Shown piece by piece: positions 9,897 to 35,579 of a stretch of 64,000 nt of DNA (positions are counted from its first letter, which is position 1; the number at the start of each line of letters is the position of its first letter). The notes under the pieces are model-generated. The model was not told the DNA's origin. It searched no databases and saw only the letters and a list, made by a program, of their open reading frames with translations. A program made the position numbers and the translations under genes. The stretch covers positions 1 to 64,000 of the forward strand of contig JAHQWH010000002.1 of assembly GCA_029856105.1 (NCBI GenBank), given 5' to 3'. The DNA is from Promethearchaeia archaeon (GTDB lineage Archaea > Asgardarchaeota > Lokiarchaeia > Sigyniarchaeales > SOKP01).

Positions 9897-12086
9897 ATGC
9901 CTCGTCGGAAGGAGATTTCTGAGATTCTAAATATGATGGAAAAAACTCAAAATATTAGAAATATTGGGTTTGTGGGCCATATAGACCATGGTAAAACAAC
10001 GCTAAGCGATTCTTTATTGAGTGAAGCGGGTTTACTTTCACCTGATCTAGCAGGGGAAGCACGTGCCTTAGATTATTTAGAAGAAGAACAAAGACGTGGA
10101 ATCACCATGAAATCTACTAATATTTCATTATACTATGAAAAATCTCTTAAAGACCACGACCCCTTTCTAATAAATCTTGTTGATACACCCGGCCACTTAG
10201 ATTTTAGCGGTAAAGTAACTCGTGCTTTAAGGTTAATAGATGGAGTCGTTGTAGTTGTCGATGCTGTTGAGGAAATAATAACTCAATCTGAAACGGTTAT
10301 TAAACAAGCCCTACAGGAAGGTGTGAAACCTGTACTTTATATTAATAAAGTAGATCGCCTCATTCGAGAGTTAAAGCTAACAGATGAACAAATAAGAAAA
10401 AAATATACAAGAATTATTAAAGATTTTAATACTCTTATTAAAAGATACGCAGATAAACCCTTCAAAAAAGAGTGGCAAGTATCTCCTGCCGATGGGAACG
10501 TTGCATTCGGCTCAGCGCTCCACAAATGGGGTTTTACATTAAACATTTTAGAAAATAACGAGTTAAAGTTTTTGGATATTAGATCGCGGTATCAAAAAGA
10601 AACATACACTAAAGAAACATACGCTGATTTAGCTGTTTATTTTCCAATACACAACGCAATACTAGAAATGGTTGTCGATCACCTCCCTAATCCGATTGAA
10701 GCTCAGAAATACAGAATAGGCAAGATTTGGGGTGGAGATTTGACATCTGAAGTTGGAAAAGCTATGACTAATTGCGATCCAAATGGACCTTTAATAATAT
10801 GTTTGAGTAAAGTGCAAGCAGATAAGCACAATTTGGTCGCAACTGGAAGAATATTTTCTGGAAATTGTTTCAATAAAGAGGAAGTATTTTTATTAAAAGA
10901 AAATGCTTTCGAGACAATTCGAAAAACCGCAATTTTCATGGGTCAAAGAAGAGAACAAGTTGAAGAAATACCTGTTGGAAACATTGTTGCTATAGAAGGT
11001 TTAAAACAAGTAAAAAGTGGCGAGACTTTAATTAATAAGAATTATATTGATAAAATGGTTCCATTTGAAAATGTAAAATATGTTTCTACTCCCGTCGTAA
11101 CAGTATCAATCGAACCAGAATATTTAAGAGATTTAGATAAAATGAAAGAGCTCATCGAAAACATACTAATCGAAGATCCTAATTTGTTATTTGAAATAAA
11201 TGAGGAAAACGGCGAATTCCTCCTCTCAGGTATGGGACCTTTACATCTTGAAATTACCGCAAATGAAATTGAAAAACGAGGTGTTGAGATTTCAACATCA
11301 GAACCAAGAGCGGTCTTTAAAGAATCTTGCAAATACGGTTCTTCTACTATCTCTGTAGAATCACCAAACCACCAAAGTTCGCTAAAAATTAGATTAGAAC
11401 TATTAAATGATAAAACAAGCAGGTTTTTCCAGACTCATGATTTTAAGTCTATAAAACCAGTAGCAAGATTGAAAGAATTGTTAGAAGAATTTACAGATTT
11501 AACAACGGAAGAAATCCAAGACTTTTGGACATATTACGATACTAATAATGTTTTAATTTATAATTTAAAAGATGATTTAAACCAATTCTTGAAAGATACA
11601 ATTTTAGAAATTGTTGATAAAATTCAATTAAATGGTCCACTATGTGGCGAAAAATTAACAAATCTAAAAGTTATAATTGAAGAACTCGTCGTAAATAAGC
11701 TTGACGAAGAAGATGCATTTACAGAATTATCCGCAATGTTTTACGATGCCATTAAAAAGGCTTTAAACGAATCTGAACTCATCCTACTTGAACCAATTTA
11801 CCATACAATTATTCAATTGCCCCCAGATTACATAAAAAATTCACTTTCTTTGCTTTCTAAGTATTCTGCAAAAATAAAAAATATCAACCAAGAAAAAGAT
11901 TATCAAGCAATCATAGAACTACTCTTACCAGTAAGAAATTCTATTAAATTCGCTGAGGATATTCGATCTATAACGTCTGGAAAAGCGTTCTGGCAAAATG
12001 AATTTTACGCCTTCATGGAAGTCCCTAATCATGAAGCCAAAAGATTAATTAGTGATTTAAGATTTATTAAAGGGCTTTCTTGGTAG
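9897..12086 (+). CDS. Elongation factor 2 paralog (aEF-2p type, lacks diphthamide His loop)
   Basis: GHIDHGKT, RGIT, DTPGH, NKVD G-motifs; domain IV has KLDEEDAFTELS in place of H...HRG.Q. Confidence 0.9.
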   Translation: MPRRKEISEILNMMEKTQNIRNIGFVGHIDHGKTTLSDSLLSEAGLLSPDLAGEARALDYLEEEQRRGITMKSTNISLYYEKSLKDHDPFLINLVDTPGHLDFSGKVTRALRLIDGVVVVVDAVEEIITQSETVIKQALQEGVKPVLYINKVDRLIRELKLTDEQIRKKYTRIIKDFNTLIKRYADKPFKKEWQVSPADGNVAFGSALHKWGFTLNILENNELKFLDIRSRYQKETYTKETYADLAVYFPIHNAILEMVVDHLPNPIEAQKYRIGKIWGGDLTSEVGKAMTNCDPNGPLIICLSKVQADKHNLVATGRIFSGNCFNKEEVFLLKENAFETIRKTAIFMGQRREQVEEIPVGNIVAIEGLKQVKSGETLINKNYIDKMVPFENVKYVSTPVVTVSIEPEYLRDLDKMKELIENILIEDPNLLFEINEENGEFLLSGMGPLHLEITANEIEKRGVEISTSEPRAVFKESCKYGSSTISVESPNHQSSLKIRLELLNDKTSRFFQTHDFKSIKPVARLKELLEEFTDLTTEEIQDFWTYYDTNNVLIYNLKDDLNQFLKDTILEIVDKIQLNGPLCGEKLTNLKVIIEELVVNKLDEEDAFTELSAMFYDAIKKALNESELILLEPIYHTIIQLPPDYIKNSLSLLSKYSAKIKNINQEKDYQAIIELLLPVRNSIKFAEDIRSITSGKAFWQNEFYAFMEVPNHEAKRLISDLRFIKGLSW

Positions 12087-13064: not shown

Positions 13065-13541
13065 ATGTCAAATCAATTTCCATATACCAAAATATTAGTA
13101 GCTTGTAGTGTTAACGTTGCAAGAAGTCCCATGACTCAAGGTTTTCTCAAAGACTTTTTTATATGTAACAATATGAATGTTGAAGTCTATTCTGGTGGAA
13201 TTTCTTCAAATGCTCGAGATGGAATGCTTATTTCTCTTGACGCGAAATTAGTGATGAAAGAAATTGGTATAGATTTACCGGAAGATTCCCTCTCAATTGA
13301 TTTAAAGAAACGCCCTGAATTAATAGAAAAAGCAAATCTTATTCTCACTCTGACTGATAAACATAAAAAAGAAATTATTGAGTTTATTAATTTAAATAAT
13401 AAAAAGATTTACACATTAAGAGAATTTGCTGGTGAAAATGGTGATATTGAAGATCCTTCGATGAAAGGAGTTGAAGGATTTCGTAAAGCTCGAGACGAGA
13501 TTAAAAGATGCTTAGATAAAGGTTTAAAAATAAATATGTGA
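13065..13541 (+). CDS. Low-molecular-weight phosphotyrosine phosphatase / ArsC-like protein
   Basis: P-loop CSVNVARS (CX5R), IEDP general-acid motif. Confidence 0.85.
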   Translation: MSNQFPYTKILVACSVNVARSPMTQGFLKDFFICNNMNVEVYSGGISSNARDGMLISLDAKLVMKEIGIDLPEDSLSIDLKKRPELIEKANLILTLTDKHKKEIIEFINLNNKKIYTLREFAGENGDIEDPSMKGVEGFRKARDEIKRCLDKGLKINM

Positions 13542-14392
13542 GAATCATGATTGAATATATAATTATTGCGATTTTACAAGGCTTGTTTGAGTGGTTGCCC
13601 ATATCTTCTTCAGGACAGGTTATGATTGTTGCAGTTAATTTTTTTGGTATCCCTCCAGAAGAAGCATATAGTCTTTCAATTTGGTTACATCTTGGAACGA
13701 TGTTCGCAGTTCTATTAAAATTCAAGAAGGATTATATTAGAATTGTAAAGAGTTTTTTACCTATGAAATTTAATGTAATAGAAACTGATATAAAGAAGAG
13801 AAATTGGCTAATAGTGGGAACAATTGGAACGGCTATTACTGCCTTACCACTATACTTTATCTTTAAATTTATAATTGTTGGAGAATTTACGGCAATTCAC
13901 GGAGATTTGCTCACGCTTATTATTGCTGGTATGCTTATCATAACTGGAATAATTCTATTATTAATAAAAAAGAAATTTGGAGTAAAAACAATCGAAAGCG
14001 TTGAAAAACAAAATGTAATAAAAGATAGTTTTATTATTGGATTAATTCAGGGTGTTGCAGTATTACCTGGAATTTCTCGATCTGCCATCACAGTATCTAC
14101 AACCCTTATTGAAAATTATGAACAAGATAGTGCATTAAGATTAAGTTTTTTAATGTCCGTTCCCGTTGTAATCGCTTCAATCGCAGTTGATATTATCTTC
14201 GGAGAGGGCTCAGTGTTTAGAATTTTAGATCCGATTACTATTATCATAATTACATTATCTAGTTTTATTGTAGGATATGCGTCTATCGAAATCCTGTTAA
14301 AAATAGCTAAAAGGATTCAGTTCGGATATTTCTGCTTACTTTACGGAATAATAGCATATGCTATCATCCTACCCTTTTTCATTATCCATTAA
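13538..14392 (+). CDS. uppP: Undecaprenyl/polyprenyl-diphosphate phosphatase (BacA/UppP family)
   Basis: QGLFEWLPISSSG, LHLGT, PGISRS, SFLMSVP; start may be the ATG at 13548. Confidence 0.93.
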   Translation: MRIMIEYIIIAILQGLFEWLPISSSGQVMIVAVNFFGIPPEEAYSLSIWLHLGTMFAVLLKFKKDYIRIVKSFLPMKFNVIETDIKKRNWLIVGTIGTAITALPLYFIFKFIIVGEFTAIHGDLLTLIIAGMLIITGIILLLIKKKFGVKTIESVEKQNVIKDSFIIGLIQGVAVLPGISRSAITVSTTLIENYEQDSALRLSFLMSVPVVIASIAVDIIFGEGSVFRILDPITIIIITLSSFIVGYASIEILLKIAKRIQFGYFCLLYGIIAYAIILPFFIIH

Positions 14393-15280
14393 ATCATTGA
14401 TATAATTAATGATAAAATCTGCCAGAATTCTCTCAATACCTTTAATTCCTCTAAATCCCGGAAAATCGTTAAGATCTATGAAATAATACTTATTGCTATT
14501 GATAGGCTGAACCAAGTCGAACCCAAATATTTTTAAATTCATTTCTTTTGAAAGTGTTTGGGCTAGATTATGAATTTCTTTAGTTATTTTAAATTCTTTT
14601 CTTTCGATTATGTCAACATCGATATTATCGGGCTTATTTTTCAAATATATATAAATCGGATTTTCTCTTATAATTCCAAACGTTTTGTCTCCTATTACGT
14701 AAATCTTTCTTTCAAAACCATCACACTCAATAAATTTTTGAATGTAGATGTCGTAGTATAATAAATGCTTATACCTTTCGCAAAATATATCTACTTCTTC
14801 TATTTTTCGAACTAAGAAATTGAATCTATTGTATTTATCATGCTGATAATGACTTTTAAGCACAATAGGTAATTTTGGAGTTGCCCATTTCTTAAATTTT
14901 TTAATATCTGCAATATTATTATTCCAAGAGCTTGGTAGAACGAAATTCTTCCTAATTTGAGGGTTATTTTTAAAAACTCTTCTTAAAGCATAATCAAGAG
15001 CGATCTTGTTTTTACAAGTTAAAACAGCATCAACACTATGGAAAGTTGGAATTTTATTAATCTTAGCATAATGAAGTAGATCGATTGAACAATCGTTCCT
15101 TACTTTAACAATAATTAAATCTGCTTCTTTAATCGCTTTAGGCATTCTAGAAAGGTTAAAAAAGTTTTTTGTGGGATCATGACAGTATAAATTGACATCT
15201 GAAACAGTTTTAAGCTTATTTATAACTCTTTTAATAATCTCATGATCTTCCCTAAAAGAAAAAACTACATTTTTAACCAT
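14369..15280 (-). CDS. ATP-grasp enzyme, ITPK1 (inositol phosphate kinase)-like
   Basis: YIQKFIECDGFERKIYVIGD ... IFGFDLV ... YFIDLNDFPGF matches the ITPK1 pattern QxFIxHxG..KVYVxG / LFGxD / IDINxFPG. Confidence 0.7.
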   Translation of the reverse strand: MVKNVVFSFREDHEIIKRVINKLKTVSDVNLYCHDPTKNFFNLSRMPKAIKEADLIIVKVRNDCSIDLLHYAKINKIPTFHSVDAVLTCKNKIALDYALRRVFKNNPQIRKNFVLPSSWNNNIADIKKFKKWATPKLPIVLKSHYQHDKYNRFNFLVRKIEEVDIFCERYKHLLYYDIYIQKFIECDGFERKIYVIGDKTFGIIRENPIYIYLKNKPDNIDVDIIERKEFKITKEIHNLAQTLSKEMNLKIFGFDLVQPINSNKYYFIDLNDFPGFRGIKGIERILADFIINYINDLMDNEKG

Positions 15281-15430
15281 AATTAAGGAAAAGAAAGTGA
15301 GATATATTCTTAAATTTTCCTTCTTAGGTATTTTTTGGAATTTAGAAAAATTTCATATTGCTATACTTCAGCCATTATACTTTTAAATGATGAATACAAA
15401 ATCTAATTAATATTTTTAGGAGATATTAAG

Positions 15431-16747
15431 ATGAAAGAAAAGGCTTTTTCAAAATTTTTACGAAATCAAGTATTGATAATTGGAGCGCTTTTTGCCGGTG
15501 ATCAAATATTTGGTTTCTTTGAACAGAATTATCTGAACACATATTTAGACCAAGTTTTGGGATTGACTCCATTATTCATTTCACTAATGGTAAGCTTATC
15601 TGCAGTAATGGGGCTAATTATGAATATTACATGGGGAATAATTAGCGATAATACACGAAGCAAATACGGCAGAAGACGTCCATTTTTACTATTTGGGATT
15701 ATAGCGGGAATTTCGATGATTATATTTGCATTTTCAATTGATATTGCTGGAGGAAACATCATGACGGCCTATATAATTTGCATTATTCTAGATGTAGTAA
15801 TAATTGGTATTTCTTCTAATGCTTATTATGTTTGTGAAAGATCATTAATTCCTGACACTGTCGATTTAGAAAAAAGGGGAAGAGCAAATGGGATAATAAA
15901 TAATATTGGTTACATTGGATTATTAATAGCAATCGCTGCATTTTTGGTATCAGATCTAATTTTTGGTCAAGAGACTCCTGAAGGAACAGTTATTGGCCAA
16001 ATGGGACACATTTTTGCACTCAGCATTGGAGGATTGAGTTTCTTAATTACAGGATTAATAGGTTTCTTCTTTATAAAAGAAAAACCTATCTCAGAATTAC
16101 CACCTAAGAAAAAATTTTTAGTAGAGTTAAAAGAAATAATAAATATTGAGCAATTTAAAGCTAATAAAGATTTTTTCAAAATTGTGTTAGCATTAACAAT
16201 ATTTAGAACTGGTATCTCCACAGTAATGCCCTTTTTATTTATTTGGATATTCGCTTTAGGATTATCTACTGTTGAATTGCTTGTTGCTGTTTTAGTGGGA
16301 TTTGTAATTTTATTTCTAATAACATCGTTGCTAGGGTATTTAGCAGATAAACATGGTAGAAGGAAATTTATACCCATTTCAATTGTAATAGTATCAATTG
16401 GTATTATTTTTGCTCCATTAGTGAAGATAGGGAACACAACAAATTATCCTTTGGTAGTATTTATTCTACCATTCATGCTTGTAGCAGTTTTAGGTTTGGC
16501 TACGCCGATGAATGCTTGGAGTCAGGATTTAATACCTGAAGACAAGAGGGGTAAATATTTTGGGTTTTTAAATATAATATTTACTATTTCTCAAATAATA
16601 GGATCTATTATTGGCGGATTGGTAGCAACTTATTTTTTAATTGGTGGATTAGTACCTGAATCCTTTGTTTTTGTGTTCGCACCAATTTTCTTTCTTGGAT
16701 CAATTCCCCTATTTCTAAGAGTAAAAGAAACTTTAGTAAGAGAATAA
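15431..16747 (+). CDS. MFS transporter (GPH/sugar-cation symporter-like)
   Basis: 12 TM; GIISDNTRSKYGRRRPF and GYLADKHGRR motif A repeats. Confidence 0.9.
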   Translation: MKEKAFSKFLRNQVLIIGALFAGDQIFGFFEQNYLNTYLDQVLGLTPLFISLMVSLSAVMGLIMNITWGIISDNTRSKYGRRRPFLLFGIIAGISMIIFAFSIDIAGGNIMTAYIICIILDVVIIGISSNAYYVCERSLIPDTVDLEKRGRANGIINNIGYIGLLIAIAAFLVSDLIFGQETPEGTVIGQMGHIFALSIGGLSFLITGLIGFFFIKEKPISELPPKKKFLVELKEIINIEQFKANKDFFKIVLALTIFRTGISTVMPFLFIWIFALGLSTVELLVAVLVGFVILFLITSLLGYLADKHGRRKFIPISIVIVSIGIIFAPLVKIGNTTNYPLVVFILPFMLVAVLGLATPMNAWSQDLIPEDKRGKYFGFLNIIFTISQIIGSIIGGLVATYFLIGGLVPESFVFVFAPIFFLGSIPLFLRVKETLVRE

Positions 16748-16763
16748 ATAACTTAAGTTTTAC

Positions 16764-16781
16764 TTTTTTTTTTAATTTTTT
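16764..16781 (+). terminator. Oligo-T tract, probable archaeal terminator
   Basis: T10-AA-T6 just after the MFS stop, between convergent genes. Confidence 0.45.
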
Positions 16782-16804
16782 GACTTTGAAATTTATAAGA
16801 GATA

Positions 16805-17818
16805 CTATCTTCTTTGAGGTTCAACAATAATTTTTATCCACTTTTCACGATCGTAATACTCGAACGCATCTACAGCTTCTTCTAGTGTTATTCTTTTAGT
16901 AACTAATTTATCTAAATCTAAGGATTTAGTCGCAATTAAATCTAAAGCTTCCTTCCAATAATCCTTATCTGATTTTGAATTTACCATCGCTTCGGGATAG
17001 ACTAATTCTACGCCTTTTTTTCTACAGCTTACATATGGAATATATTGCATTTTTTGAGCTCCAAATACAATAACTCGAAAACCAGGTTTCACTAAGTCTA
17101 TAGCATCAAGAAGAATGTCGTTATATCCAACCATTTCAAATACAGCGTCGGCTTCACCAAAATCCTTTTTAATCCCATCAACGACGGTTTCCTTTCCATG
17201 AGTAGATCTCGAATATTCGCTTGGACTAAAAACTTTTGCCCCCCAATGCTTCGCTAACTCTCTTCTATGGTGATAAGGTTCTGAAGTTGCAACTTCAATT
17301 CCATTTTTTAATAATATTTGAGTAAGAATTAACCCAATAGGGCCCAAACCTAATACAATCGCTTTTTTCTCACCTTCGATTCTTTCGAATTCTGCCCTCT
17401 CGTAACAATTGATCGCACAACCAACAGCATCTGCAAAAGAAATTTCATCCATTGAAAGATCATTTCTAACGATTGGAAGTGCTCCATAAACCTCATCCTT
17501 GCCATGTCCAATGACATTTACATGAGTAGAATACTCTGCATATCCTTGCCCCATACGGGCTAAATGATCACCAATAAAAATTCCTTCAATATCTTTTCCA
17601 ACCTCAACAGCGATGGCGCCAGTTTCATGCCCGTGTCCACCAGGCTCATGAGCTGTAATCCAATGACCTCCTTCAAATATCCCAACATCGCTGCCACAGA
17701 TTCCAACAGTAATTATTTGTGCTAAAATTTCCTTATGTCCAGGTTTAGGTATTTCAATGTCTATTAATTTAACAACCCATGGTTCCGGAAATAATAAAGC
17801 ACGCATCTTATTCTCCAT
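16805..17818 (-). CDS. Zn-dependent MDR dehydrogenase (sugar alcohol/cyclitol dehydrogenase-like)
   Basis: GICGSD, GHE, GLGPIG; lacks the four-Cys structural Zn loop. Confidence 0.85.
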   Translation of the reverse strand: MENKMRALLFPEPWVVKLIDIEIPKPGHKEILAQIITVGICGSDVGIFEGGHWITAHEPGGHGHETGAIAVEVGKDIEGIFIGDHLARMGQGYAEYSTHVNVIGHGKDEVYGALPIVRNDLSMDEISFADAVGCAINCYERAEFERIEGEKKAIVLGLGPIGLILTQILLKNGIEVATSEPYHHRRELAKHWGAKVFSPSEYSRSTHGKETVVDGIKKDFGEADAVFEMVGYNDILLDAIDLVKPGFRVIVFGAQKMQYIPYVSCRKKGVELVYPEAMVNSKSDKDYWKEALDLIATKSLDLDKLVTKRITLEEAVDAFEYYDREKWIKIIVEPQRR

Positions 17819-17863
17819 TTTAATTTCACGATTATTTTTTAATATTAGTTTAGATCTTTATAT

Positions 17864-20689
17864 CTATCTTCCTTTAATTCCATCAAATAAAAGCCTTAAT
17901 ATGATTCCAAGAGGAACTCCCAATCCTTTAGAAGAACTCGCTTTAGAAATGGATGGATCATAATTTTTATTCACTTTTTTTACCCAATCAATGTATGACA
18001 TATTCATTACTTCTTTTAATTCAAAATCTTGTTTTATCCTTTCTGCGTGATTAGCATATTTTTTAAGGTTATTATTAACTTTAAGGTCTCCATTTTTTTG
18101 CATTAATATCAATGGTTTAAACGAAAAATGATCAGCAAATGATTGTATTACCTTAGGAGGAGAATCACCAATATAAGGTGATAATAATAAATTAAATGAG
18201 ATTGTTTTACCACTAAAAGTGGGGGCTGTAGATTCATTTGTTCCTATTAAATTTGCAGTAATTCTTTGAGCATGACCATTCCCTTCTGTCCAATAATGAA
18301 AAACCTCACCATAATATGTACCAAAAGGATTTATTCTGATCTGTTGTCCTTTCATTTTAATGTCACCAAATCCTTTATCCATAAGTTTTAATGGAGAGAA
18401 TGCGAAGTTTGCTGCTTCTAAAGAATCGAAACCAATAAGAAGGCCTTTTTCTTGATTAGATAAAGCCATCCATCCATCTGATATATTAGCAACTAAACAA
18501 TCAATATCTGCATTTTTAGGATCTACTTCTTTCATATCAAGGTTAAAGTAATCTATATTACCCAGAAAATTCTTTTTCCAAATTCTTAGTGTTTTATTTG
18601 TTCCTAGAATATTGGATCTTATTTCACATGGCATAACCTCTTTCCATTTCTTATTGTACTTTTCTTCAACGAAATAAGATGTTCCATCACTTTTTCCTAT
18701 GTTCGTAGTTTCGCCTTTAATTTCAGGAACATGCATTAGTACATCTACAAATAAGTATGGCAGCTCTGAATATAATTTAATGGTCTTTTCAGAATAGACT
18801 CGATAATTTTTTTCAATTTCAAATTCGCTTTTAATTTTAATGGAAGCAGAAAAACCGTCACTTCCATCTCTTTGAATAATGATCTCATCTGTATCTGAAT
18901 TATATATTTTCCCTTTGTTTGATTTATCAAAATTAACTGATGACTCTAAAAATTTTGGGCAACCAAACTCAACATTATTGAATTTAAAGGAATTTATTTT
19001 ACCATTATTGTTAAACTCCAGAGTAATATATTTATTTTTCATGATAGTTTTGGTTGCTATCAATTTTTGATTGTTGATTTGAGGTTTGGATTCTGAAAAA
19101 TTTATTGAAAAAATAGCAGTTTTCATATCATTTTGAGAGAAAGCTGAATTTGGTATAATTGCTTCTAATTTTAGACCAGATTCGTTATTATAAACGGAAA
19201 AGGATTTTAAGAATTCTTTTGAGTCTAGATTTAACAATTTTATAATTTTTCCTTGTTTTATTAACTGATCGTTAAAATTTGATGGTAGCTCTAATTGAAT
19301 CAATATTGAGCTATTCAGGGGAATTTTCTCTTTTTCTGAAGTTCCTCTATTTGTTATTGGGGTAATTGAAATAATAGATTTAAATTCACTGTAATCATTA
19401 GTAATTGTTTTTACCATTTCTCGCGTTGCCAAATTTACAGCTTTTTCTGATGCAATAAAAGACTTTAGTACATAACTCATAGCGGTTTTACGTCTATCTG
19501 AATGAAGAAATGGCATTGCCATACCAAAATTAGTTGTTGAGGCAAAAAGAATTTTATTTTTTAGGTATGAGTCAGCAGAATCGTTAGTGTTCCTTAAAAA
19601 ATTATTAATTTCAGATTTAGAATTCTTAACTAAGCCTTCAGAGATTAAGGTATCTGATATACATTTTAACCACCTAGCACTTTGCCCTATAGTCCAGAAT
19701 TTTGTATTATTAAATTTTTGAGCCCAATTATAATATCCATTAAACATCCCATCAGCAACATCTTCTCTTAATAAAGTTTCACCTTGTACTTTCAATTTTG
19801 GTATAATTTCTAAAAGGTTAGTAAATTCAGCATAATCGTATTGGTCTACTGCTTCAGCAAACTCCATTAAACCTCTTGAGTTTGGCATCCAGTTTAGAAA
19901 TTTAGGTAATTTTAAACCAATCCAATTTTCATAATCCATATCAAAATTTAGGAATATAAGAGCATGCCCACTTATTACTCCGCTCTTTTGTTTTTGTCTA
20001 ATGATTTCAAACCATCTCTTTATCGAACAATAGTCAAGAATGTCACCAAATCCATACATTGGTATCATTAAGCAAGAAGCATCTGTAATAGTTGAGTTAA
20101 ATTTAACTACACCATATCTCTGATTCCAGTCTAATCGGGGATTAATGAAAGGTCGTGCTACATCAAATCCATACATAGAGTAATAAATACATATCCCCTC
20201 TACACCCAATTTATTATACAATTCTATCATACCTTGTGTAAACATCGTCTCTTGTGTGCGGGCATATGGAGCTACCCTTCCTGGAAATAATTGATTTAGA
20301 CCGATACCCATTGAATTTTCTAAGAACCATTTATGCTGTTGGATAAATTCTTCCGTATCTAAAATTGGTTGAGCGACGTTACCCCAAGAACCAATTAGAA
20401 CTTCATCTTTTCCCTTTTTACACCTTTCAATAACTCTATCAAGTACATCTTGTTGAAATTCTTTTTGTAATTGTATAGACCAAAATGTATCACCATAATC
20501 CCAAGTAATTCGCGTATTTCCAAATTTAAAACCTACATCTTCAATTCTATCTAATTCATCAAGAATGCCTCTCATCATTTTGAGATCTTTACCAAAACCG
20601 GCGTCCCCTCTTGAATCTCCTCTATAGGAATGATAATAATTAATATGAGGTGATAAAACTAAATAGATTTTTTTTTGTTCGATATTCAA
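17864..20689 (-). CDS. Large glycoside hydrolase-like protein (GH38/GH57-type N-terminal barrel plus beta-sandwich)
   Basis: N-terminal SPHINYYHS, central NFDMDYE, C-terminal mutarotase-like beta-rich region (MKNKYITLEF...); TTG start. Confidence 0.5.
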   Translation of the reverse strand: MNIEQKKIYLVLSPHINYYHSYRGDSRGDAGFGKDLKMMRGILDELDRIEDVGFKFGNTRITWDYGDTFWSIQLQKEFQQDVLDRVIERCKKGKDEVLIGSWGNVAQPILDTEEFIQQHKWFLENSMGIGLNQLFPGRVAPYARTQETMFTQGMIELYNKLGVEGICIYYSMYGFDVARPFINPRLDWNQRYGVVKFNSTITDASCLMIPMYGFGDILDYCSIKRWFEIIRQKQKSGVISGHALIFLNFDMDYENWIGLKLPKFLNWMPNSRGLMEFAEAVDQYDYAEFTNLLEIIPKLKVQGETLLREDVADGMFNGYYNWAQKFNNTKFWTIGQSARWLKCISDTLISEGLVKNSKSEINNFLRNTNDSADSYLKNKILFASTTNFGMAMPFLHSDRRKTAMSYVLKSFIASEKAVNLATREMVKTITNDYSEFKSIISITPITNRGTSEKEKIPLNSSILIQLELPSNFNDQLIKQGKIIKLLNLDSKEFLKSFSVYNNESGLKLEAIIPNSAFSQNDMKTAIFSINFSESKPQINNQKLIATKTIMKNKYITLEFNNNGKINSFKFNNVEFGCPKFLESSVNFDKSNKGKIYNSDTDEIIIQRDGSDGFSASIKIKSEFEIEKNYRVYSEKTIKLYSELPYLFVDVLMHVPEIKGETTNIGKSDGTSYFVEEKYNKKWKEVMPCEIRSNILGTNKTLRIWKKNFLGNIDYFNLDMKEVDPKNADIDCLVANISDGWMALSNQEKGLLIGFDSLEAANFAFSPLKLMDKGFGDIKMKGQQIRINPFGTYYGEVFHYWTEGNGHAQRITANLIGTNESTAPTFSGKTISFNLLLSPYIGDSPPKVIQSFADHFSFKPLILMQKNGDLKVNNNLKKYANHAERIKQDFELKEVMNMSYIDWVKKVNKNYDPSISKASSSKGLGVPLGIILRLLFDGIKGR

Positions 20690-20898
20690 AATTATTTAAC
20701 TCTTTGTTATGGTTTAAGACTGAATAAATCTATATTAAAGAATTTAATAATATTATCAAAATTTTCAAATCATTCACTATTTTACCCTTTAACACATCAA
20801 TCATAGAAGATGGTCATATCCTTAATAATTTGGCTTGGAAATAATTCTCAAAAATTTTAAAATGTTTTAAATAGTATTATTTAATTATAGAAAATATC

Positions 20899-21990
20899 AT
20901 GACAAACAAAATTAATGTATGCATAATTGGCTGTGGTGATGTTTGTTCTGCTTTAGTACAAGGAGTACAAAATTACAAGAAAAATCCAGATAATATCATA
21001 GGGTTATTACCTGAGATTACTCAATATAGCGTTAATGACATAAACTTTGTACTAGGGATCGATGTTAATTCAAATAAGGTAGGAAAGGACCTAAGTGAAG
21101 CTATTTTTATTGAACCAAATTGCAACATCAGATTATTTGAACCCGGATTTTTAGATGCTCCTGTAATAAAAGGACCTGTTATGGATGGATTAAATAGTAA
21201 CATAAAAAAGTTCATTCCCATAGATGATAATCAACTTGATCCAGATGTTTCAAAAGCGATAAAAAATAAAGATATTGATGTTGCAGTAATTTTACTTCCT
21301 ACTGGAAGTCACAACGCAGTGAGGTTTTATGCCATGGCCGCTCTTGACGCAGGTGCATGTGTTGTTAATGGAATGCCGTCATATGTAGCTAAGGACCCTG
21401 AGATCGTAAAAAAAGCCGAAGAACTAAATCTTTCATTAATTGGTGACGATATAAAATCTCAGATAGGCGCTACTATTATTCATCGCTCATTAGCAAATCT
21501 CTTTCCTATGAGAGGAGCAATTCTCGATCGCACGATTCAATTAGATTGGGGAGGGTCATCAGATTTTTGTAATTTATTAACTCCAAGAGCTAATGGGAAG
21601 TTAGTTTATGAAGAAGGGAAACGACAAGCTAAAACTGAAGCAGTTGTAGCAAATCTTCCAAATAAAGACACTATAGAATGTCAAATCTCAGCTGTAGACT
21701 ATATTCCTTTCTTAAAGAATCAAAAGGAAGCTTATATGAGATTAGAAGGTCGTATTTTTGGAGGTGCTCCAGTTAGGGTTGACATTACGATGTTTGTAGA
21801 AGATGGAAATAATTCAGCGGGTGTAATAGCAGATTGTATCAGAGTTTCAAAAATCGCTAAAGATCGCAAAATTGGAGGTGTTCTACACTCAGCTTGCTCT
21901 TTCTTTAATAAACATCCCCCAGAACAATTAGATGATTACATAGCAAAAAGTCACCTTTTAGAGTTTATAGAAAACAAAAGGGAAAGGTAA
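20899..21990 (+). CDS. ino1: myo-inositol-1-phosphate synthase (divergent)
   Basis: DVNSNKVGKDLSEAIF, LPTGS, GDDIKSQIGATIIHR, DYIPFL, NSAG, KHPP. Confidence 0.9.
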   Translation: MTNKINVCIIGCGDVCSALVQGVQNYKKNPDNIIGLLPEITQYSVNDINFVLGIDVNSNKVGKDLSEAIFIEPNCNIRLFEPGFLDAPVIKGPVMDGLNSNIKKFIPIDDNQLDPDVSKAIKNKDIDVAVILLPTGSHNAVRFYAMAALDAGACVVNGMPSYVAKDPEIVKKAEELNLSLIGDDIKSQIGATIIHRSLANLFPMRGAILDRTIQLDWGGSSDFCNLLTPRANGKLVYEEGKRQAKTEAVVANLPNKDTIECQISAVDYIPFLKNQKEAYMRLEGRIFGGAPVRVDITMFVEDGNNSAGVIADCIRVSKIAKDRKIGGVLHSACSFFNKHPPEQLDDYIAKSHLLEFIENKRER

Positions 21991-22020
21991 ACTCAAGGAA
22001 CTTTTTCTTCACTTACATAT

Positions 22021-22932
22021 TTAACTTTTCGCTTTGATAAATGAATTTTGATAAGTTTCTCTCATATTTATCAAGTTATAAATGTGATCTGAAACCAGAC
22101 TCACTCCTTCGGGTATACTCCTAAAACTTGGGAAGTCGTTTATGTCTACAATGTAAGGGCCTTTTTCAGTCATAATGTAATCTAATCCAAAAATAGACAT
22201 TCCAAACTTTCGTCCTAATCTTATAATCCTTCTTTTAAATTGCTCGTCGACAGGAACTCTAATATGGATTAATTCTAACGGAGATAAATTTTTGTTTTTT
22301 TGTAAGCGATTATGCGAAGTAATTGAAACAACCCAATTACCAATAACATATACCTTATAGATAATTTCGTGCTCACCTAAATATTCTTGTAAAAATAACT
22401 CACTTTCGTCATAGGTTTGTGTCAATTCAACTAAATCATTCGAGTTCTTAACAATTCCAATAATTCTATCGTTTTTAGGTAACTCCGGTATGTTATGTGA
22501 GTTCAACTTAACGATAATATTAGTACCTTTCTGGCACGCTTTCCAAGCGTCTTGTTTGGTATTATAAGTGAGTGGTATTTGGATTTTCTTACAACTACTC
22601 TTGATTAATTCAAAAGTGTTTGTTCTACTCTCACAAATTTGGACAGAATTTAACGAATTTAGAATTGGAATATTTGGAGAAACATTTCTAACAACTTTGT
22701 AGATACTTTCGTTAGATTTTTGGGTAGTAAGCTTAACAATCACAAAGGAAATAGGGTATTTTTTCAATCTTTTTTCCAAATATTTTTCATTAAAATTTTC
22801 ATGTCCATTTTTCATTAAATTGACTACGTAAATATTGTAATTCTTTAATAGGAATTTCTTGATATGTTCTAAAACCTCAAGATCCCTATTACAAATGGCT
22901 CCTACATATTTCCTTTTTATATTACTCGCCAT
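22021..22932 (-). CDS. ATP-grasp enzyme, ITPK1-like
   Basis: FLQEYLGEHEIIYKVYVIG ... IFGLDYI ... YIVDINDFPSF. Confidence 0.7.
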   Translation of the reverse strand: MASNIKRKYVGAICNRDLEVLEHIKKFLLKNYNIYVVNLMKNGHENFNEKYLEKRLKKYPISFVIVKLTTQKSNESIYKVVRNVSPNIPILNSLNSVQICESRTNTFELIKSSCKKIQIPLTYNTKQDAWKACQKGTNIIVKLNSHNIPELPKNDRIIGIVKNSNDLVELTQTYDESELFLQEYLGEHEIIYKVYVIGNWVVSITSHNRLQKNKNLSPLELIHIRVPVDEQFKRRIIRLGRKFGMSIFGLDYIMTEKGPYIVDINDFPSFRSIPEGVSLVSDHIYNLINMRETYQNSFIKAKS

Positions 22933-23143
22933 TTAAAAAACTCTATTAATTTGATTTTTTAAAAGCAAACCATAGTATATAAATGTATTGTTTGAGCGTA
23001 TTTTCAGTCATTAAGTAATTTAATTGAAATTATATTTTTTTTTTAACTTAGAAAAGCTTAAAAGAATATAGCTCAAAATTAATTTATACAATATTCTTAA
23101 AAAATTTTATAATATTTGATAATAATAGAGATGAAATAATAAA

Positions 23144-24403
23144 ATGTCAAAATTGGATGCCTTAGCTAAAGATAAGGATGAAAAAGCAGAGAAATTATCT
23201 CAAAGATCAAAAGGATACATGCTCTATCTTGTAGTATTTATGGGATTAGTAGGTTTAATGGATAATTTTCTATCTCAAATTGAATCGGTCGCAGTACCTT
23301 ATTTACTTGCAGATTTTGGTATAACCCCAGAAACCTTTGCTTTTTGGCAAGGAATCTACGGAATTATCTCATTTGCTGTATTTTTTATTGCTTGGATTTC
23401 AGACGCTTTCGGTAGAAAAAAGGGAATTCTTTTGTTAGTTCTTGTATTGGGTGTTCCTGCACTTTTTATTGGAATAACGGCCTTTACATTTCACTTATTT
23501 ATGATATTATACGCAATTATCATAACAGCGACACTTTCGAATATGTGGGAACTGCCTATTGTCGAGGAATCACAACCAAAGAAACGTGGGCTTTATGGAG
23601 GGCTTACTTTTCTTATCGGTTTAATTCCGGTATTTGCATTTGTGGGAGTGCCTATTGCTGAGGCTTTTGGATGGCGATGGACTTACGGTGTAATGTTTTT
23701 TTTAATGCTTTTAGTTATAATACTATGGTTCTTTATGAAAGAACCTCAGAGATGGCTTGAGGCTCATGAAGAGAGGGGACATGAATATCTAAAAATAAAG
23801 ACCGCATTTAAATCGTTAAAAAGAAAAGATTTAAAATATATCTTAATTGCTTCGTTAGTTTATGGTGTGTGGACTGTCTCATTTAAGATGGGGACAACAT
23901 GGGGAGGTCATTACTATATGGATGTCATTGGATTAACTCCTGGAGGATATAGATCAATATTGACGATTGGCGGATTACTTACAATGGTCGGTGCATTATT
24001 AGGGGGGATATTAATGGATAAATTAGGAAGAAACATAACACTATTAGTTGGATGTGGGGGATCTATTATTGGTTTTGTATTTTTAGGAATTTCCACATTA
24101 CCAATCTTCTTTTGGATGGTATATTTATTTATGCCTATGATTTTAGCGTATATTATGGTATATTTCAGTGAAATCTTCCCTACTCATATTAGGAGCACTT
24201 GTACAGGTATTACTGCTACAGCAGCACGTCTTTCGTATGTTCTAGGTCCTTTACTTGCTTCTACCTTATTAATCGCATTCCCAGATATGGGTGGATTTTG
24301 GATTGTAGCTGGATTCCTCATGATCATACCAATATTTTCCCTATTCGTAAAACCATATGAAACTAAAGGTAAAACTCTGGAAGAAATTCAAGAAGAAAGA
24401 TAA
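23144..24403 (+). CDS. MFS transporter (sugar porter-like)
   Basis: SDAFGRK, MDKLGR, SEIFPTHIRS, ETKGKTLEEI (sugar/inositol porter-type C-terminal motif). Confidence 0.9.
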   Translation: MSKLDALAKDKDEKAEKLSQRSKGYMLYLVVFMGLVGLMDNFLSQIESVAVPYLLADFGITPETFAFWQGIYGIISFAVFFIAWISDAFGRKKGILLLVLVLGVPALFIGITAFTFHLFMILYAIIITATLSNMWELPIVEESQPKKRGLYGGLTFLIGLIPVFAFVGVPIAEAFGWRWTYGVMFFLMLLVIILWFFMKEPQRWLEAHEERGHEYLKIKTAFKSLKRKDLKYILIASLVYGVWTVSFKMGTTWGGHYYMDVIGLTPGGYRSILTIGGLLTMVGALLGGILMDKLGRNITLLVGCGGSIIGFVFLGISTLPIFFWMVYLFMPMILAYIMVYFSEIFPTHIRSTCTGITATAARLSYVLGPLLASTLLIAFPDMGGFWIVAGFLMIIPIFSLFVKPYETKGKTLEEIQEER

Positions 24404-24557
24404 ATTATTAATTTTTTTTTTTTTTCATTAATGAAGATTTAGATTATAATAATAAATTCAAGAAAAATTCAAAATAGTATAAAAGTATGAATATTATTAG
24501 TTCATTAGCAAAGAATCTTTTTAGAATTTAAAGTAATTGAATTAAAAGGTTAAATTT

Positions 24558-25376
24558 TTGATAAAAATTGGTATTATTATCGATAAGTACCATTTGCAGA
24601 AAAAAGCCTTAAAACTTATTGATTATCTATCCACAGTAGCAAAAATTTCTCTATATCTTGAAGAAGATTATCTAATAGATTATTCCAAATTTGATTTTAA
24701 TGAGGATATCTTTTTTGTCAAAGCTAAAGGTGATTTAATCTTAAATCTAATAAAGTTGATTGAAAGAGAAACAGATATTCCTGTAATTAATTCATCAAGA
24801 GGAATATGGTTAGCAATTAATAGATTTTTAAATAGTACTTTGCTAAGACAATCAGGGATACGAGTCCCTAATTTTACTCTAAACGCTAAAGGATTAATTC
24901 CACCTTTTAATGATTATATTATAAAAAATATCATAGATCAAAAGAACTATGCTTTTAGCCCCAAAATTCAAAGAATGAATGGATACTTAACTATTTCCGA
25001 TCAAAGGGCATTAGACGAAGTAAACGGAGAGAAAGCAAAATATACCTATCTCTACTACCAAGAATTTATTAAAAGTAAATGGGAATATAAAGTATATTGC
25101 ATTGGTGATGACCTGTTTTATTACAAACAAATCCCTATTTTAATTGATCCAGATAAGATGAAATCTAGAAGAAAGATCAAGGAAATACCAGAACTGAGAG
25201 AGATGGCCTTCAAGGCAATAAAAGCTGTGGGTTTAAAAATTGCATCGATGGATTTTCTTCAATCTGAAAGTGGAGATTTCTATCTTACTGATATCAATTC
25301 GTCGCCCAATTTTAATTACATAAAAAATGGGCCAAAAATTATTGGCGATTATTTAATTAAACAAGCTAAAAATTAA
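24558..25376 (+). CDS. ATP-grasp enzyme, ITPK1/RimK-like
   Basis: YYQEFIKSKWEYKVYCIGD ... IASMDFL ... YLTDINSSPNF; TTG start. Confidence 0.7.
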   Translation: MIKIGIIIDKYHLQKKALKLIDYLSTVAKISLYLEEDYLIDYSKFDFNEDIFFVKAKGDLILNLIKLIERETDIPVINSSRGIWLAINRFLNSTLLRQSGIRVPNFTLNAKGLIPPFNDYIIKNIIDQKNYAFSPKIQRMNGYLTISDQRALDEVNGEKAKYTYLYYQEFIKSKWEYKVYCIGDDLFYYKQIPILIDPDKMKSRRKIKEIPELREMAFKAIKAVGLKIASMDFLQSESGDFYLTDINSSPNFNYIKNGPKIIGDYLIKQAKN

Positions 25377-25378
25377 GT

Positions 25379-26182
25379 TTGACAAATGAAATGAAAATTG
25401 GAATACTATCAAAAAGAACAGGAAACTTCACTGGTAAAATCAAGCTTTACTTAGAAAAGAAAGGACATTCAGTGAATATTTATACTGCTAGCAATCTATG
25501 CGTTAATGATGCTCTCTTAATAAACGATTTTTACATATTAAAATCTAAACATCTATTTTATCTCTATGCAGGTTATTTTTTAGAAGCTAATAATGTTCCC
25601 GTTATCCCAAGTACAGATATTAGTTATCGACATAAAAATCGAATTGAATCTTACTTTTCTATTAAAAATACTAATCTCTTACTTCCAAATGTTTTTATGG
25701 GAACTATTGATACTTTAAAAAGTCAATTAAAAAAAATTGATTTACCGCTTATTTCAAAACCAATTTTAGGCTCTGGAAGTAAGGGGGTTAAAGTTATTAA
25801 TTCTTTTCAAGATTTTAATACTATTACCGAAGAGAGTTTTTATTTAGAAAAATTTATTGAAGGCATTCACTACTTAGCATACTTTATAGATGAAGAGATC
25901 TGTATCTGTGAAAAAAAACCTTTAGCAAACGAACACGACAAAGTAAAAATAATTGTTTCCGATGGTGAGATAGAAGAATATATAATTAAATGGAAGAATA
26001 ACTATAATCTCTTATTTGGCCACCTAGATCTTGTAAGAGATAACAACACTGATAAATTATTCGTGGTAGATGCGGGAACCTTTCCTGAATTTTCAAATTG
26101 GAAGCATAATAGTGATCCCGTTTCGAAAGTATGTAACTTAATTTTGGATAGATATCAACAAATATTAAACAAAACGGAGTAA
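25379..26182 (+). CDS. ATP-grasp enzyme, RimK-like with degenerate DxN motif
   Basis: KPILGSGSKGV, YLEKFI, FGHLDL, VVDAGTFPEF; starts 2 nt after the previous stop. Confidence 0.7.
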   Translation: MTNEMKIGILSKRTGNFTGKIKLYLEKKGHSVNIYTASNLCVNDALLINDFYILKSKHLFYLYAGYFLEANNVPVIPSTDISYRHKNRIESYFSIKNTNLLLPNVFMGTIDTLKSQLKKIDLPLISKPILGSGSKGVKVINSFQDFNTITEESFYLEKFIEGIHYLAYFIDEEICICEKKPLANEHDKVKIIVSDGEIEEYIIKWKNNYNLLFGHLDLVRDNNTDKLFVVDAGTFPEFSNWKHNSDPVSKVCNLILDRYQQILNKTE

Positions 26183-26220
26183 AAGTTTACAAAAAGAGGT
26201 ATAGAATTTTTACATTAAAT

Positions 26221-27234
26221 ATGAATTCGCCCAATAACTTTCCTAGTTCAGACGAAAATGAATACGCGACATCTTCAATATTCAAAAAACAAAAGGTTAA
26301 ACTATATGAGATTAAGCACTTTCTTTTTGATTTTGGAGGAGTATTAATAGAAAAGTCATTTGTATTAGATAATTTATTTGATTTTATTGAGCATGATCTA
26401 AATATTAAAATTCCATCAAAAGAAATTGATCCATATCTCAAAAAATTAAGACGAAGGTTATCGTCTGGAAGGATTTCTGCTAGAACATTTTTAGAATCGA
26501 TATTTGAGACTTATTATGTACCTTTCCAAAAAAAAAATGAAGCGTTACCGCCAAAAAAAGTTAATATCGAGTATTACTTGGAGCTTTGGTTTAACCTTTA
26601 TTCTCAAGTTACTCACATATCGTCTGATATGGCAGAGATTATCGATCTTTTACATTTAGCGGGGTATACTGTAAGTCTTTTGTCAAATACTTATGACATT
26701 CATGCGAAATCAAATGAATTAAGGGGTTTTTACGATAATTTTGATAACGTGTTTTTATCGAACGAAATTGGATTAATTAAACCCGATATGGATAAATACA
26801 TATATGTATTAAAAAAATTAGGTTCCAAACCAAAAAGATGTATTTTTGTTGATGATAAAATAAGTAATCTTATTCCTGCACATGAATTAGGAATAATCGT
26901 TATAAAATTCGAATCTTTCGAGAAGTTTAAACAGCAATTAAACGATATAGGCATAATAGAAATAAGCCCAAATTTAAGGAAAGAAATCAAGAAAAAGTAT
27001 GAATCATATAAAAAAAAGAAAAAGGAATATAACAAAATAAAAAGGGAATACAAGAAGGCTAAAAAAAAGTATCTAAATAAAAGATATAGAAAGAAAAAAT
27101 CATTAAAGAGAAGGCTTGATTTTCAAAAAAAGCGAGCAGAATACCAAAAGAAAAAGATTGAATATCAAAATGAAAGGGATAAGAAAAAGGAAGAACTAAT
27201 ATCAAAAGTTAAATTAAATTTTTATAGTAATTAA
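26221..27234 (+). CDS. HAD-family phosphatase with Lys-rich C-terminal extension
   Basis: FDFGGVL, LLSNT, SNEIGLIKPD, FVDD..NL motifs; ~85-aa polybasic tail. Confidence 0.88.
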   Translation: MNSPNNFPSSDENEYATSSIFKKQKVKLYEIKHFLFDFGGVLIEKSFVLDNLFDFIEHDLNIKIPSKEIDPYLKKLRRRLSSGRISARTFLESIFETYYVPFQKKNEALPPKKVNIEYYLELWFNLYSQVTHISSDMAEIIDLLHLAGYTVSLLSNTYDIHAKSNELRGFYDNFDNVFLSNEIGLIKPDMDKYIYVLKKLGSKPKRCIFVDDKISNLIPAHELGIIVIKFESFEKFKQQLNDIGIIEISPNLRKEIKKKYESYKKKKKEYNKIKREYKKAKKKYLNKRYRKKKSLKRRLDFQKKRAEYQKKKIEYQNERDKKKEELISKVKLNFYSN

Positions 27235-27237
27235 CCA

Positions 27238-28368
27238 TTATTTATTTTCTTCTGTTTCGGTATCGCTTTCTTTATTGTAAGCTTCTAGCTTTTCCATAAC
27301 GGATTCTGCGGGTGATGCCGCAGGAATTGGTATTTTTTCGTAAATTTCAATAAATTTTACATCATTTATATCTTCGCTCATATGAGTCTGAAGGTCCATG
27401 GCAAACCCAAATTTAAAGTAAGTGAGATTTTGGAACAGAAACATTTTAGGAACTGTAATTTCTAGAGTCTTATCCTCCGCATGGTTTATGATAAATTCAG
27501 CAGCACTCTCTTTAGGAATCCCCTTTGTAATCATGAAATATTCAATTTTTTCGTTAAAATCTTCTATTTTATCGATAATCTCTAGGTTGTAGTCGATTGG
27601 TTGACCCGCTAAAGGATGGTTATAGTCGATAATGACTTTTCCTTGCATAATATTAGAAACTACGCCTCTTTGGCCTTTTTTATTGGTAAAATCTTGACCA
27701 AATTCGGGGTTCTTGCCTTCATTTAATTTTCTAAACTTAGCGATACCAATTCTTTCGATTTTTTGAGGGTCTCTTTTACCAAATGCTTTAGTTGGGGGTA
27801 TTCTTACAGATTTCTTTTCAAAGTAATTCATTTCTTTAATTGTTTCAGTTAATCCCTCGTTTAAGAATCCTGGCTTTCCAACAATAATGAATTCTGGAGT
27901 GTAATGACCTTGTTTAGCCTTTTCTTCATCGTAAATTCCCGATTTTCTTGCGTCCTCCTCGGTAGAAACTCTAAAAACTTTTCCTTTTTGGGTTCTTGCT
28001 GTCATTTTTAAGAGTACAAAATCACCCTCTTCAACTTTTTTTCCTTGTAATTTGTTTTTCTTTTCTTCTAATTTCTTAGCTTCTTCTTGAATTCTTTTTT
28101 CTTCCTTTGCATCTGTTTCCACTTCTGCGGATACTTTATCGTTTTCTACTGTACTACCCTCTGATGTAGCCTTATTTGAGCCACCTAACAAATCTTTTGC
28201 ATTGCTTACGAATTTTTCAGCAGTAGCCTTTCCAATACCTTTAAGTTGTGTTAACTCATCCACATTCGCATCTGCTAATTTCTCAACTGTGTCAATCCCA
28301 GCTTCTATTAGAACTTCTTGCTTTTTGCCAACACCTTTCACATCTTCTAAATTCATTCCTAAAACCAT
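27238..28368 (-). CDS. Long-type archaeal FKBP PPIase fused to an N-terminal helix-hairpin-helix domain
   Basis: LEDVKGVG...LKGIGKATAEK (HhH x2); IPPTKAFGKRD, IDYNHPLAG (SlyD/FKBP). Confidence 0.88.
   Translation of the reverse strand: MVLGMNLEDVKGVGKKQEVLIEAGIDTVEKLADANVDELTQLKGIGKATAEKFVSNAKDLLGGSNKATSEGSTVENDKVSAEVETDAKEEKRIQEEAKKLEEKKNKLQGKKVEEGDFVLLKMTARTQKGKVFRVSTEEDARKSGIYDEEKAKQGHYTPEFIIVGKPGFLNEGLTETIKEMNYFEKKSVRIPPTKAFGKRDPQKIERIGIAKFRKLNEGKNPEFGQDFTNKKGQRGVVSNIMQGKVIIDYNHPLAGQPIDYNLEIIDKIEDFNEKIEYFMITKGIPKESAAEFIINHAEDKTLEITVPKMFLFQNLTYFKFGFAMDLQTHMSEDINDVKFIEIYEKIPIPAASPAESVMEKLEAYNKESDTETEENK

Positions 28369-32441: not shown

Positions 32442-35579
<3,138 letters not shown>

Follow-up and report, generated by a model that had tools for sequence, protein, structure and literature searches.

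A 64,000-nucleotide stretch of DNA from a Promethearchaeia archaeon (Lokiarchaeia, Sigyniarchaeales; assembly GCA_029856105.1, contig JAHQWH010000002.1, positions 1 to 64,000; hereafter, the window) carries, at 14369–27234, ten genes that probably represent two adjacent units at a single inherited site. The core unit encodes myo-inositol-1-phosphate synthase (MIPS) and three ATP-grasp proteins (AG2, AG3 and AG4) and, judging from sequence comparisons, would act with a fourth ATP-grasp protein (AG1) and usually a HAD phosphatase to yield a soluble inositol polyphosphate. The second unit would be a separate cassette of a GPH transporter (MFS1), a zinc-dependent dehydrogenase (MDR) and a 941-aa glycosidase, with a second transporter (MFS2) as a rare insertion (Table 1). 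A first-pass annotation of the sequence had placed ten genes of these kinds within ~13 kb, and all ten open reading frames were confirmed as placed, with family matches that agree (Pfam matches for MIPS, both MFS transporters, MDR (ADH_N/ADH_zinc_N) and HAD) and named homologues from Promethearchaeota/Lokiarchaeia. Its term "island" fared less well: GC content is 28–33% over the ten genes, the same as in the remaining window, which rules out a compositional island, and the core occupies a fixed site between the genes for UppP and FKBP family-wide. A single operon or shared signals were likewise rejected, given that gene directions alternate (~6 transcription units by orientation) and that a promoter scan returned 85 against 82 in shuffles (using a bacterial consensus, uninformative for archaea).

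Conservation of gene neighbourhood sets the core apart. Across 80 loci picked by AG3 (from related genomes, and so not independent), AG2 was no more than three genes upstream of AG3 in 75 of 75 loci and MIPS adjoined AG2 in 69 of 71. Kept in ~80 genomes and recurring at 26–64% identity in other lineages, this clustering is far beyond chance; the unconserved neighbourhood that the first-pass annotation had named as evidence against a functional link was not what we found for MIPS-AG2-AG3-AG4. Among 121 genomes of the class, AG1 was present in 89 and AG2 in 77; AG4 was found in 98 of the 128 genomes of the family and, with the query used, in 0 of 250 other Asgard genomes. AG1 is the older resident of the site, because an AG1-only genus (g4) branches first in a tree of four flanking genes and because the sister family has an AG1-like gene next to FKBP; the MIPS block may have been gained just once. 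The locus-gene searches had no match in two single-contig genomes from the sister family.

The kinase assignment is clearest for AG1 and AG2, the sole proteins in the genome to match the Ins134_P3_kin family of eukaryotic ITPK1 (PF05770; 47.4 bits for AG1 and 34 bits for AG2, against a Pfam gathering cut-off of 23), a family with no match in 14 control genomes. ITPK1 is established as acting on InsP1 (inositol monophosphate). ITPK structures were also the top hits in PDB profile searches (E = 1e-11 for AG1 and 1e-6 for AG2), with RimK behind. Equivalents of the human ITPK1 residues K199, D281, D295 and N297 (mapped via the 2q7d alignment), together with that of K59, are all present in AG1, AG2 and AG3; the invariant residues are K59/K192/R205/D255/D269/N271 in AG1 and K67/K193/D251/D263/N265, and also R156, in AG2. 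At the inositol-phosphate contacts, K59 has an equivalent in all four proteins, R212 corresponds to R205 in AG1 and to Lys in AG4, and the H167 position is Arg in AG1 and AG2 by eye, in a poorly aligned loop. The four proteins share the ATP-grasp fold with eukaryotic ITPK1, with a likeness mostly confined to the C-terminal part, and are remote paralogues of one another (22–27% identical, some pairs being barely detected by BLAST). The earlier description of four kinase-like ATP-grasp enzymes therefore stands for AG1 and AG2, which pass the ITPK family cut-off, whereas AG3 and AG4 miss it and AG4 also lacks two catalytic residues. The ITPK N-terminal domain (PF17927) had no match in the genome, and its model matched no control genome either; IPK and IP5 2-kinase likewise had no match in this 92%-complete genome, in searches where two of the three models (including PF17927) matched no control. 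The IPK model PF03770 exceeded its cut-off in the control Methanosarcina acetivorans.

MIPS, a family established as converting glucose-6-phosphate to inositol 3-phosphate (Ins(3)P), is represented by one copy, the only one found in the genome (PF01658, 72.7 bits against a cut-off of 27) that has G11/G13, D183, D184, K241, K245, D267, D302 and K338, residues of NAD-binding or active-site type, in common with other MIPS. The MIPS proteins of core modules, Asgard and non-Asgard alike, form one clade (support 100/100; stem of 1.21 substitutions per site), apart from 24 other lokiarchaeal MIPS, from which they differ by eight fixed differences. On one other contig (L046:7080-10555), three tandem MIPS paralogues from three clades precede AG2.

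AG3 and AG4 appear to be an undescribed obligate enzyme pair. In AG3, the catalytic signature K55, K178, D232, D245 and N247 is kept in 95–98 of 98 homologues (97–100%). AG4 keeps both Asp residues and the K59 equivalent, has Gly in place of Asn in 87 of 87 homologues and Leu, Asn or Thr, never Lys, at the K199 position, retains a GSGS phosphate loop and has conserved residues of its own (H164, K179, D217 and D231). AG4 immediately follows AG3 in 80 of 80 loci, nearly always with a gap of no more than 20 bp, and the same adjacency recurs in distant copies with or without MIPS. The two proteins are predicted to form a heterodimer: the modelled complex scored 0.90 in three runs, against 0.00 for the best control, with contacts that agreed by at least 96% and a partner predicted local distance difference test (pLDDT) score of at least 86, the mark for such scores being reached by 58 of 80 solved pairs and 2 of 110 mismatched pairs. 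The predicted interface is pseudo-symmetric, with residues ~35–43 of each chain against 104–110 of the other. This prediction supports binding and falls short of showing it. We found no paper on AG3, AG4 or the non-Asgard copies in a search that left out most subscription papers. AG3/AG4-like genes also occur in other settings: an Asgard contig (L175:7020-10759) carries two tandem pairs, in one of which the AG4-like protein has a fused SpoT-type HD hydrolase domain, beside genes for a xylose-isomerase-like protein, purple acid phosphatase, GH127 and a GPH transporter, and AG4-like proteins with a C-terminal extension lie beside a radical SAM/SPASM gene, with no AG3 detected adjacent, on two contigs (L177:10001-11239 and L182:749-1876), one of which is named Pseudomonadota.

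A related locus has been described in part. As the first-pass annotation noted, ITPK1-like kinases were already reported in Lokiarchaeum, and their link to MIPS was reported with them: Desfougères et al. (2019, PNAS; PMC6900528) described four ITPK1 homologues in Lokiarchaeum GC14_75 (LcIKA-D) as two pairs flanking two inositol-phosphate synthase (IPS) genes. In yeast, LcIKC acted on soluble myo-inositol phosphates and partly restored InsP6 in a plc1-delta strain (PMC6900528). AG2 is the probable orthologue of LcIKC, for which Arg156 is described (PMC6900528), because AG2 has an invariant R156. The Loki's Castle GC14 contigs (L091, L092, L258 and L278) hold AG1, MIPS, AG2, AG3, AG4 and HAD in the order of the window, at 51–80% identity, in at least three strain versions of the locus, none with a transporter, dehydrogenase or glycosidase; the published "two pairs" are probably AG1 and AG2 in two strain copies, to judge from these contigs. 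The window and the published loci thus share ITPK1-like ATP-grasp genes flanking a lokiarchaeal IPS gene, whereas the main text of that paper does not treat AG3, AG4, HAD, the accessory cassette or the non-Asgard copies (PMC6900528). The kinase–MIPS link is therefore known; the AG3–AG4 pair and the wider range of the core are apparently new.

Taking these lines of evidence together, we propose as the most likely reading that MIPS would convert glucose-6-phosphate to Ins(3)P, and that AG2 and AG1 would phosphorylate Ins(3)P and its products with no lipid step, as was shown in yeast for the Lokiarchaeum orthologue. AG3 would supply an ITPK-type two-metal phosphotransfer site within the predicted heterodimer, AG4 would bind nucleotide or substrate as a partner that either lacks catalysis or catalyses differently, and the pair would most likely add a further phosphate to an inositol phosphate. 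HAD, found after AG4 in 56 of 74 loci and missing from the non-Asgard copies, may trim the products. It matches PF00702 and has intact motifs I–IV (D37, S155, K187 and D211, all invariant); the nearest specific models (epoxide-hydrolase N-domain and glucose-1-phosphatase types, and TIGR02247) fall below their cut-offs, and generic HAD-IA alone lies above. Its tail (26971–27234), where 31 of the final 87 residues are Lys and several are invariant among 16 orthologues, could bind a polyanion such as an inositol polyphosphate or polyphosphate, or a membrane.

Several observations weigh against this proposal. In genera g3, g4, g5 and g8, AG1 occupies the site and MIPS-AG2-AG3-AG4 are absent. The R212 contact position is Ser in AG2 and Gln in AG3. 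Ins(3)P would also have a lipid use, because just one MIPS was found and the genome has five CDP-alcohol phosphotransferases. The rescue of yeast InsP6 by LcIKC was partial, with other kinases supplied by yeast (PMC6900528). The accessory trio is found at the AG1-MIPS site in several genera and is thus not a random visitor. AG3 and AG4 of the window do not match PF05770, nor do most of their homologues (1 of 98 AG3 and 7 of 87 AG4 at E < 1e-3), and the best PDB matches of their family profiles are instead weak ones to ArgX, LysX and RimK. The AG4 model (pLDDT 92) is closest to LysX/ArgX (Z = 25.5, root-mean-square deviation (rmsd) 2.5, 249 residues aligned), and ITPK was absent among the top 50 folds of that search. 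Finally, LysX and RimK are solved homo-oligomers, so the AG3–AG4 complex score may reflect resemblance to them.

The last three of these points bear on the alternative that survives best, in which AG1 and AG2 are inositol-phosphate kinases and AG3–AG4 is a RimK/LysX-like ligase heterodimer that would activate a carboxylate for coupling with an amine or a hydroxyl, perhaps one of an inositol derivative. RimK, LysX, ArgX and MptN ligases are the closest solved folds, give the weak sequence matches of AG3 and AG4 and are oligomeric, as the predicted AG3–AG4 dimer would be; the GSGS loop of AG4 and the AG3–AG4 pairs that occur without MIPS or AG2 (L175, L186 and L187) would also suit a ligase. However, the ligase motifs are replaced: RimK-type enzymes have Arg at the K199 position and Glu at the D295 position (Asp-x-Arg and Glu-x-Asn motifs), whereas AG3 has Lys and Asp-x-Asn. 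None of AG1–AG4 reaches the NCBIfam cut-offs for RimK, LysX or MptN (best 49 bits, against 143–350), and in a FastTree phylogeny of 143 ATP-grasp rows (selected by an AG-based profile, with motif columns kept and eukaryotic ITPK left out) all four lie outside a 15-row ligase clade (SH-like support 99) that contains the genome's own RimK-like gene, with AG1 and AG2 grouping at 95 and AG3 and AG4 at 86. The clustering with RimK/LysX/MptN ligases by which the first-pass annotation would have abandoned the kinase reading was thus seen in neither the tree nor the profile scores, yet membership of the ITPK family extends to AG1 and AG2 only. On balance, we regard a ligase function for AG3–AG4 as unlikely. 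Among other Asgard proteins that matched the joint profile (E between 1e-20 and 1e-27), those inspected were rejected, having ligase motifs and grouping with the ligases.

The core is also found beyond the Asgard archaea. A profile search of 1.84 billion representatives, in which AG2-, AG3- and AG4-like matches were followed up, yielded numerous proteins sharing the Lys/Asp/Asn signature (102 of 154 rows, a broad family). AG2 divergent from AG3, AG4 and MIPS was the arrangement in archaea with a MIPS cluster that bears the name Thermoplasmatota (L179, L183, L184, L198 and L203), and it recurred on contigs of 67–69% GC with bacterial-type neighbours (L200 and L201); "bacterial-looking", as used here, is a label drawn from a GC content of 65–69% and from neighbouring genes that include AraC, TctC and CsoR. 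The five genomes searched that carry a non-Asgard core had no AG1 orthologue, and the non-Asgard copies also lack HAD and the accessory genes; the Thermoplasmatota copies carry an extra TIM-barrel AP_endonuc_2 (xylose-isomerase-like) gene. Movement of the four core genes as a unit would fit these sequences, because the MIPS proteins of all modules form a single clade. The eukaryote-type signalling chemistry announced by the first-pass annotation is not supported here, the core being present also in Thermoplasmatota and on bacterial-looking contigs.

This wider distribution bears on a further alternative, that the core makes a phosphorylated cyclitol other than free myo-inositol polyphosphate; such a product might be a lipid head group, serve as a compatible solute or be based on a different inositol isomer. 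The long branch and fixed differences of the module MIPS, the breadth of the same-signature family and the additional TIM-barrel gene of the Thermoplasmatota copies, of a fold used by inosose isomerases, all point in this direction. Against it, the cluster has no nucleotidyltransferase or CDP-alcohol transferase, the active-site-type residues of MIPS are unchanged and LcIKC used soluble myo-inositol phosphates in yeast (PMC6900528), so that we hold a different cyclitol product to be quite improbable.

Our proposal of a soluble inositol polyphosphate also has a stronger form, which we advance as a tentative and rather doubtful extension: MIPS-AG2-AG3-AG4 could be a self-sufficient, horizontally moved prokaryotic route from glucose-6-phosphate to InsP5/InsP6 or pyrophosphates, in which a kinase/pseudokinase-like AG3–AG4 heterodimer would fill the positions of IPMK, IP5 2-kinase or PPIP5K. 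If so, some Lokiarchaeia, Thermoplasmatota and bacteria would produce inositol polyphosphates, which would then be a hallmark of neither eukaryotes nor Asgard archaea. This locus underlies the 2019 argument for inositol polyphosphates older than eukaryotes, and that argument is refined here in three ways: the conserved unit is three ATP-grasp genes plus MIPS, AG4 was found in one family only within Asgard (for the query used) and the core also occurs outside Asgard. Because of this one-family Asgard range and the non-Asgard copies, the core gives weak support to the idea that it was inherited from an Asgard ancestor. It does offer a compact four-gene set that could be reconstituted for asking whether prokaryotes make inositol polyphosphates.

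The accessory genes behave differently from the core. Among 54 loci, the slot between AG1 and MIPS was empty in 21 and contained MFS1 in 20 (MFS1 alone in 10, the full MFS1-MDR-glycosidase trio in 4); an 811-aa protein was present in 11, and GH2 or other genes also occurred. The 941-aa glycosidase was found in 25 of the 121 genomes of the class (two truncated), and MFS2 at 4 of 80 loci (between AG2 and AG3 in 3 of 75, after AG4 in 1). The trio also occurs in genomes and places without the kinases, in one case next to genes for a DHDPS-family aldolase and an SDR. The closest genomes, whose other genes are ~90% identical, have an MFS1 copy of only 57–58% identity; MFS1 matches MFS_1/MFS_2 and falls below the TIGR00792 cut-off. 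The nearest PDB entries to MDR are threonine and sorbitol dehydrogenases (E = 1e-18 to 1e-14), and its identification as the scyllo-inosose dehydrogenase IolM was rejected (71 bits against a cut-off of 450).

The 941-aa protein had no Pfam, NCBIfam or PDB sequence match, even with a 94-sequence profile, and was placed by fold search alone, from an AlphaFold (AF2) model (pLDDT 91) that bears out the glycosidase-like label of the first-pass annotation as a prediction. The catalytic barrel of the model resembles a GH57 amylopullulanase (Z = 23.6, rmsd 3.2, 326 residues aligned), and its overall architecture resembles GH38 (Z = 19.8, rmsd 5.5, 676 aligned; template modelling score ~0.5 to GH38 mannosidases). 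GH57 is defined by a (beta/alpha)7 barrel with a Glu nucleophile at strand 4 and an Asp donor at strand 7 (PMC6037648). The model has such a barrel and a helical bundle, and among its barrel strands are 139–144 and 243–250, with E147 (at least 90% conserved) past strand 4 and D250 (invariant) at strand 7, a match to the GH57 pair that was read off strand order rather than superposition. It differs from GH57 and GH38 in its 10–14% identity, lack of a Pfam match and large GH38-like C-terminal beta region. Approximately 140 relatives were found, and the named ones are mostly Asgard. The 811-aa slot protein (L039:10974-13409 and ten other loci, many in g2 genomes; 31 of 129 genomes of the family) has no Pfam match, is GH36/raffinose-synthase-like by Atlas features and was rejected as a homologue of the 941-aa protein (hhalign probability 0.1%).

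From these matches and the modelled fold, the GPH transporter, MDR and GH57-like glycosidase are probably a separate cassette for glycoside uptake and breakdown; a link to inositol via galactinol-type glycosides is possible, and unsupported. The first-pass annotation had instead joined all ten genes in one synthesise–phosphorylate–dephosphorylate–transport module, and in such a system the glycosidase would release a cyclitol from glycosides like galactinol, MDR would interconvert it and the transporters would move it. In its favour, MFS1 and a glycosidase recur between AG1 and MIPS in different genera, the genes found there in their place encode further glycosidases (the 811-aa protein in 11 of 54, or GH2) and AG1 occurs with the trio in a genus lacking MIPS (g5). 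Nonetheless, with the slot empty in 21 of 54 loci and complete in 4, the glycosidase in far fewer genomes than AG2 (25 against 77 of 121), the trio present without MIPS or AG2–AG4, none of the accessory genes, nor HAD, with the non-Asgard core, and recombinant ITPK1s inactive on free inositol (PMC6900528), a ten-gene system is the least probable of the alternatives.

Table 1 Genes of the locus and other features of the window.
Feature	Position	Strand	Description
EF-2 homologue	9897..12086		Elongation factor 2 homologue, 729 aa
UppP	13538..14392		UppP/BacA-family phosphatase
AG1	14369..15280	-	ITPK1-like ATP-grasp kinase (putative), 303 aa; PF05770 match
MFS1	15431..16747	+	GPH-like (glycoside/melibiose-type) MFS transporter; variable accessory
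MDR	16805..17818	-	Zn-MDR sugar/polyol-type dehydrogenase without structural-zinc lobe; variable accessory, co-travels with glycosidase
941-aa protein	17864..20689	-	GH57-like glycoside hydrolase (predicted), GH38-like architecture overall; variable accessory
MIPS/IPS	20899..21990	+	myo-inositol-1-phosphate synthase, PF01658; core
AG2	22021..22932	-	ITPK1-like ATP-grasp kinase (putative), 303 aa; PF05770 match; core
MFS2	23144..24403	+	Sugar-porter-like MFS (MFS_1/Sugar_tr); rare insertion
AG3	24558..25376	+	Divergent ATP-grasp with ITPK catalytic signature; core; predicted catalytic subunit
AG4	25379..26182	+	Atypical ATP-grasp without catalytic Lys and Asn; core; predicted AG3 partner
HAD	26221..27234	+	HAD-IA phosphatase, Lys-rich conserved C-terminal tail; usual, dispensable neighbour
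FKBP	27238..28368		FKBP-type PPIase (peptidyl-prolyl isomerase)
GH2	32445..35579		LacZ-like GH2 beta-galactosidase, 1044 aa

Around the locus, the UppP gene shares 24 bp with the 3' end of AG1; it is the steadiest neighbour of AG1, yet it is absent in the two closest genomes. The FKBP gene, whose product has an N-terminal helix-hairpin-helix domain, is the constant right border. The GH2 beta-galactosidase, assigned by sequence motifs, lies 5 kb away from the locus. The elongation factor 2 homologue is divergent-looking and is a candidate for the Asgard EF-2 paralogue.

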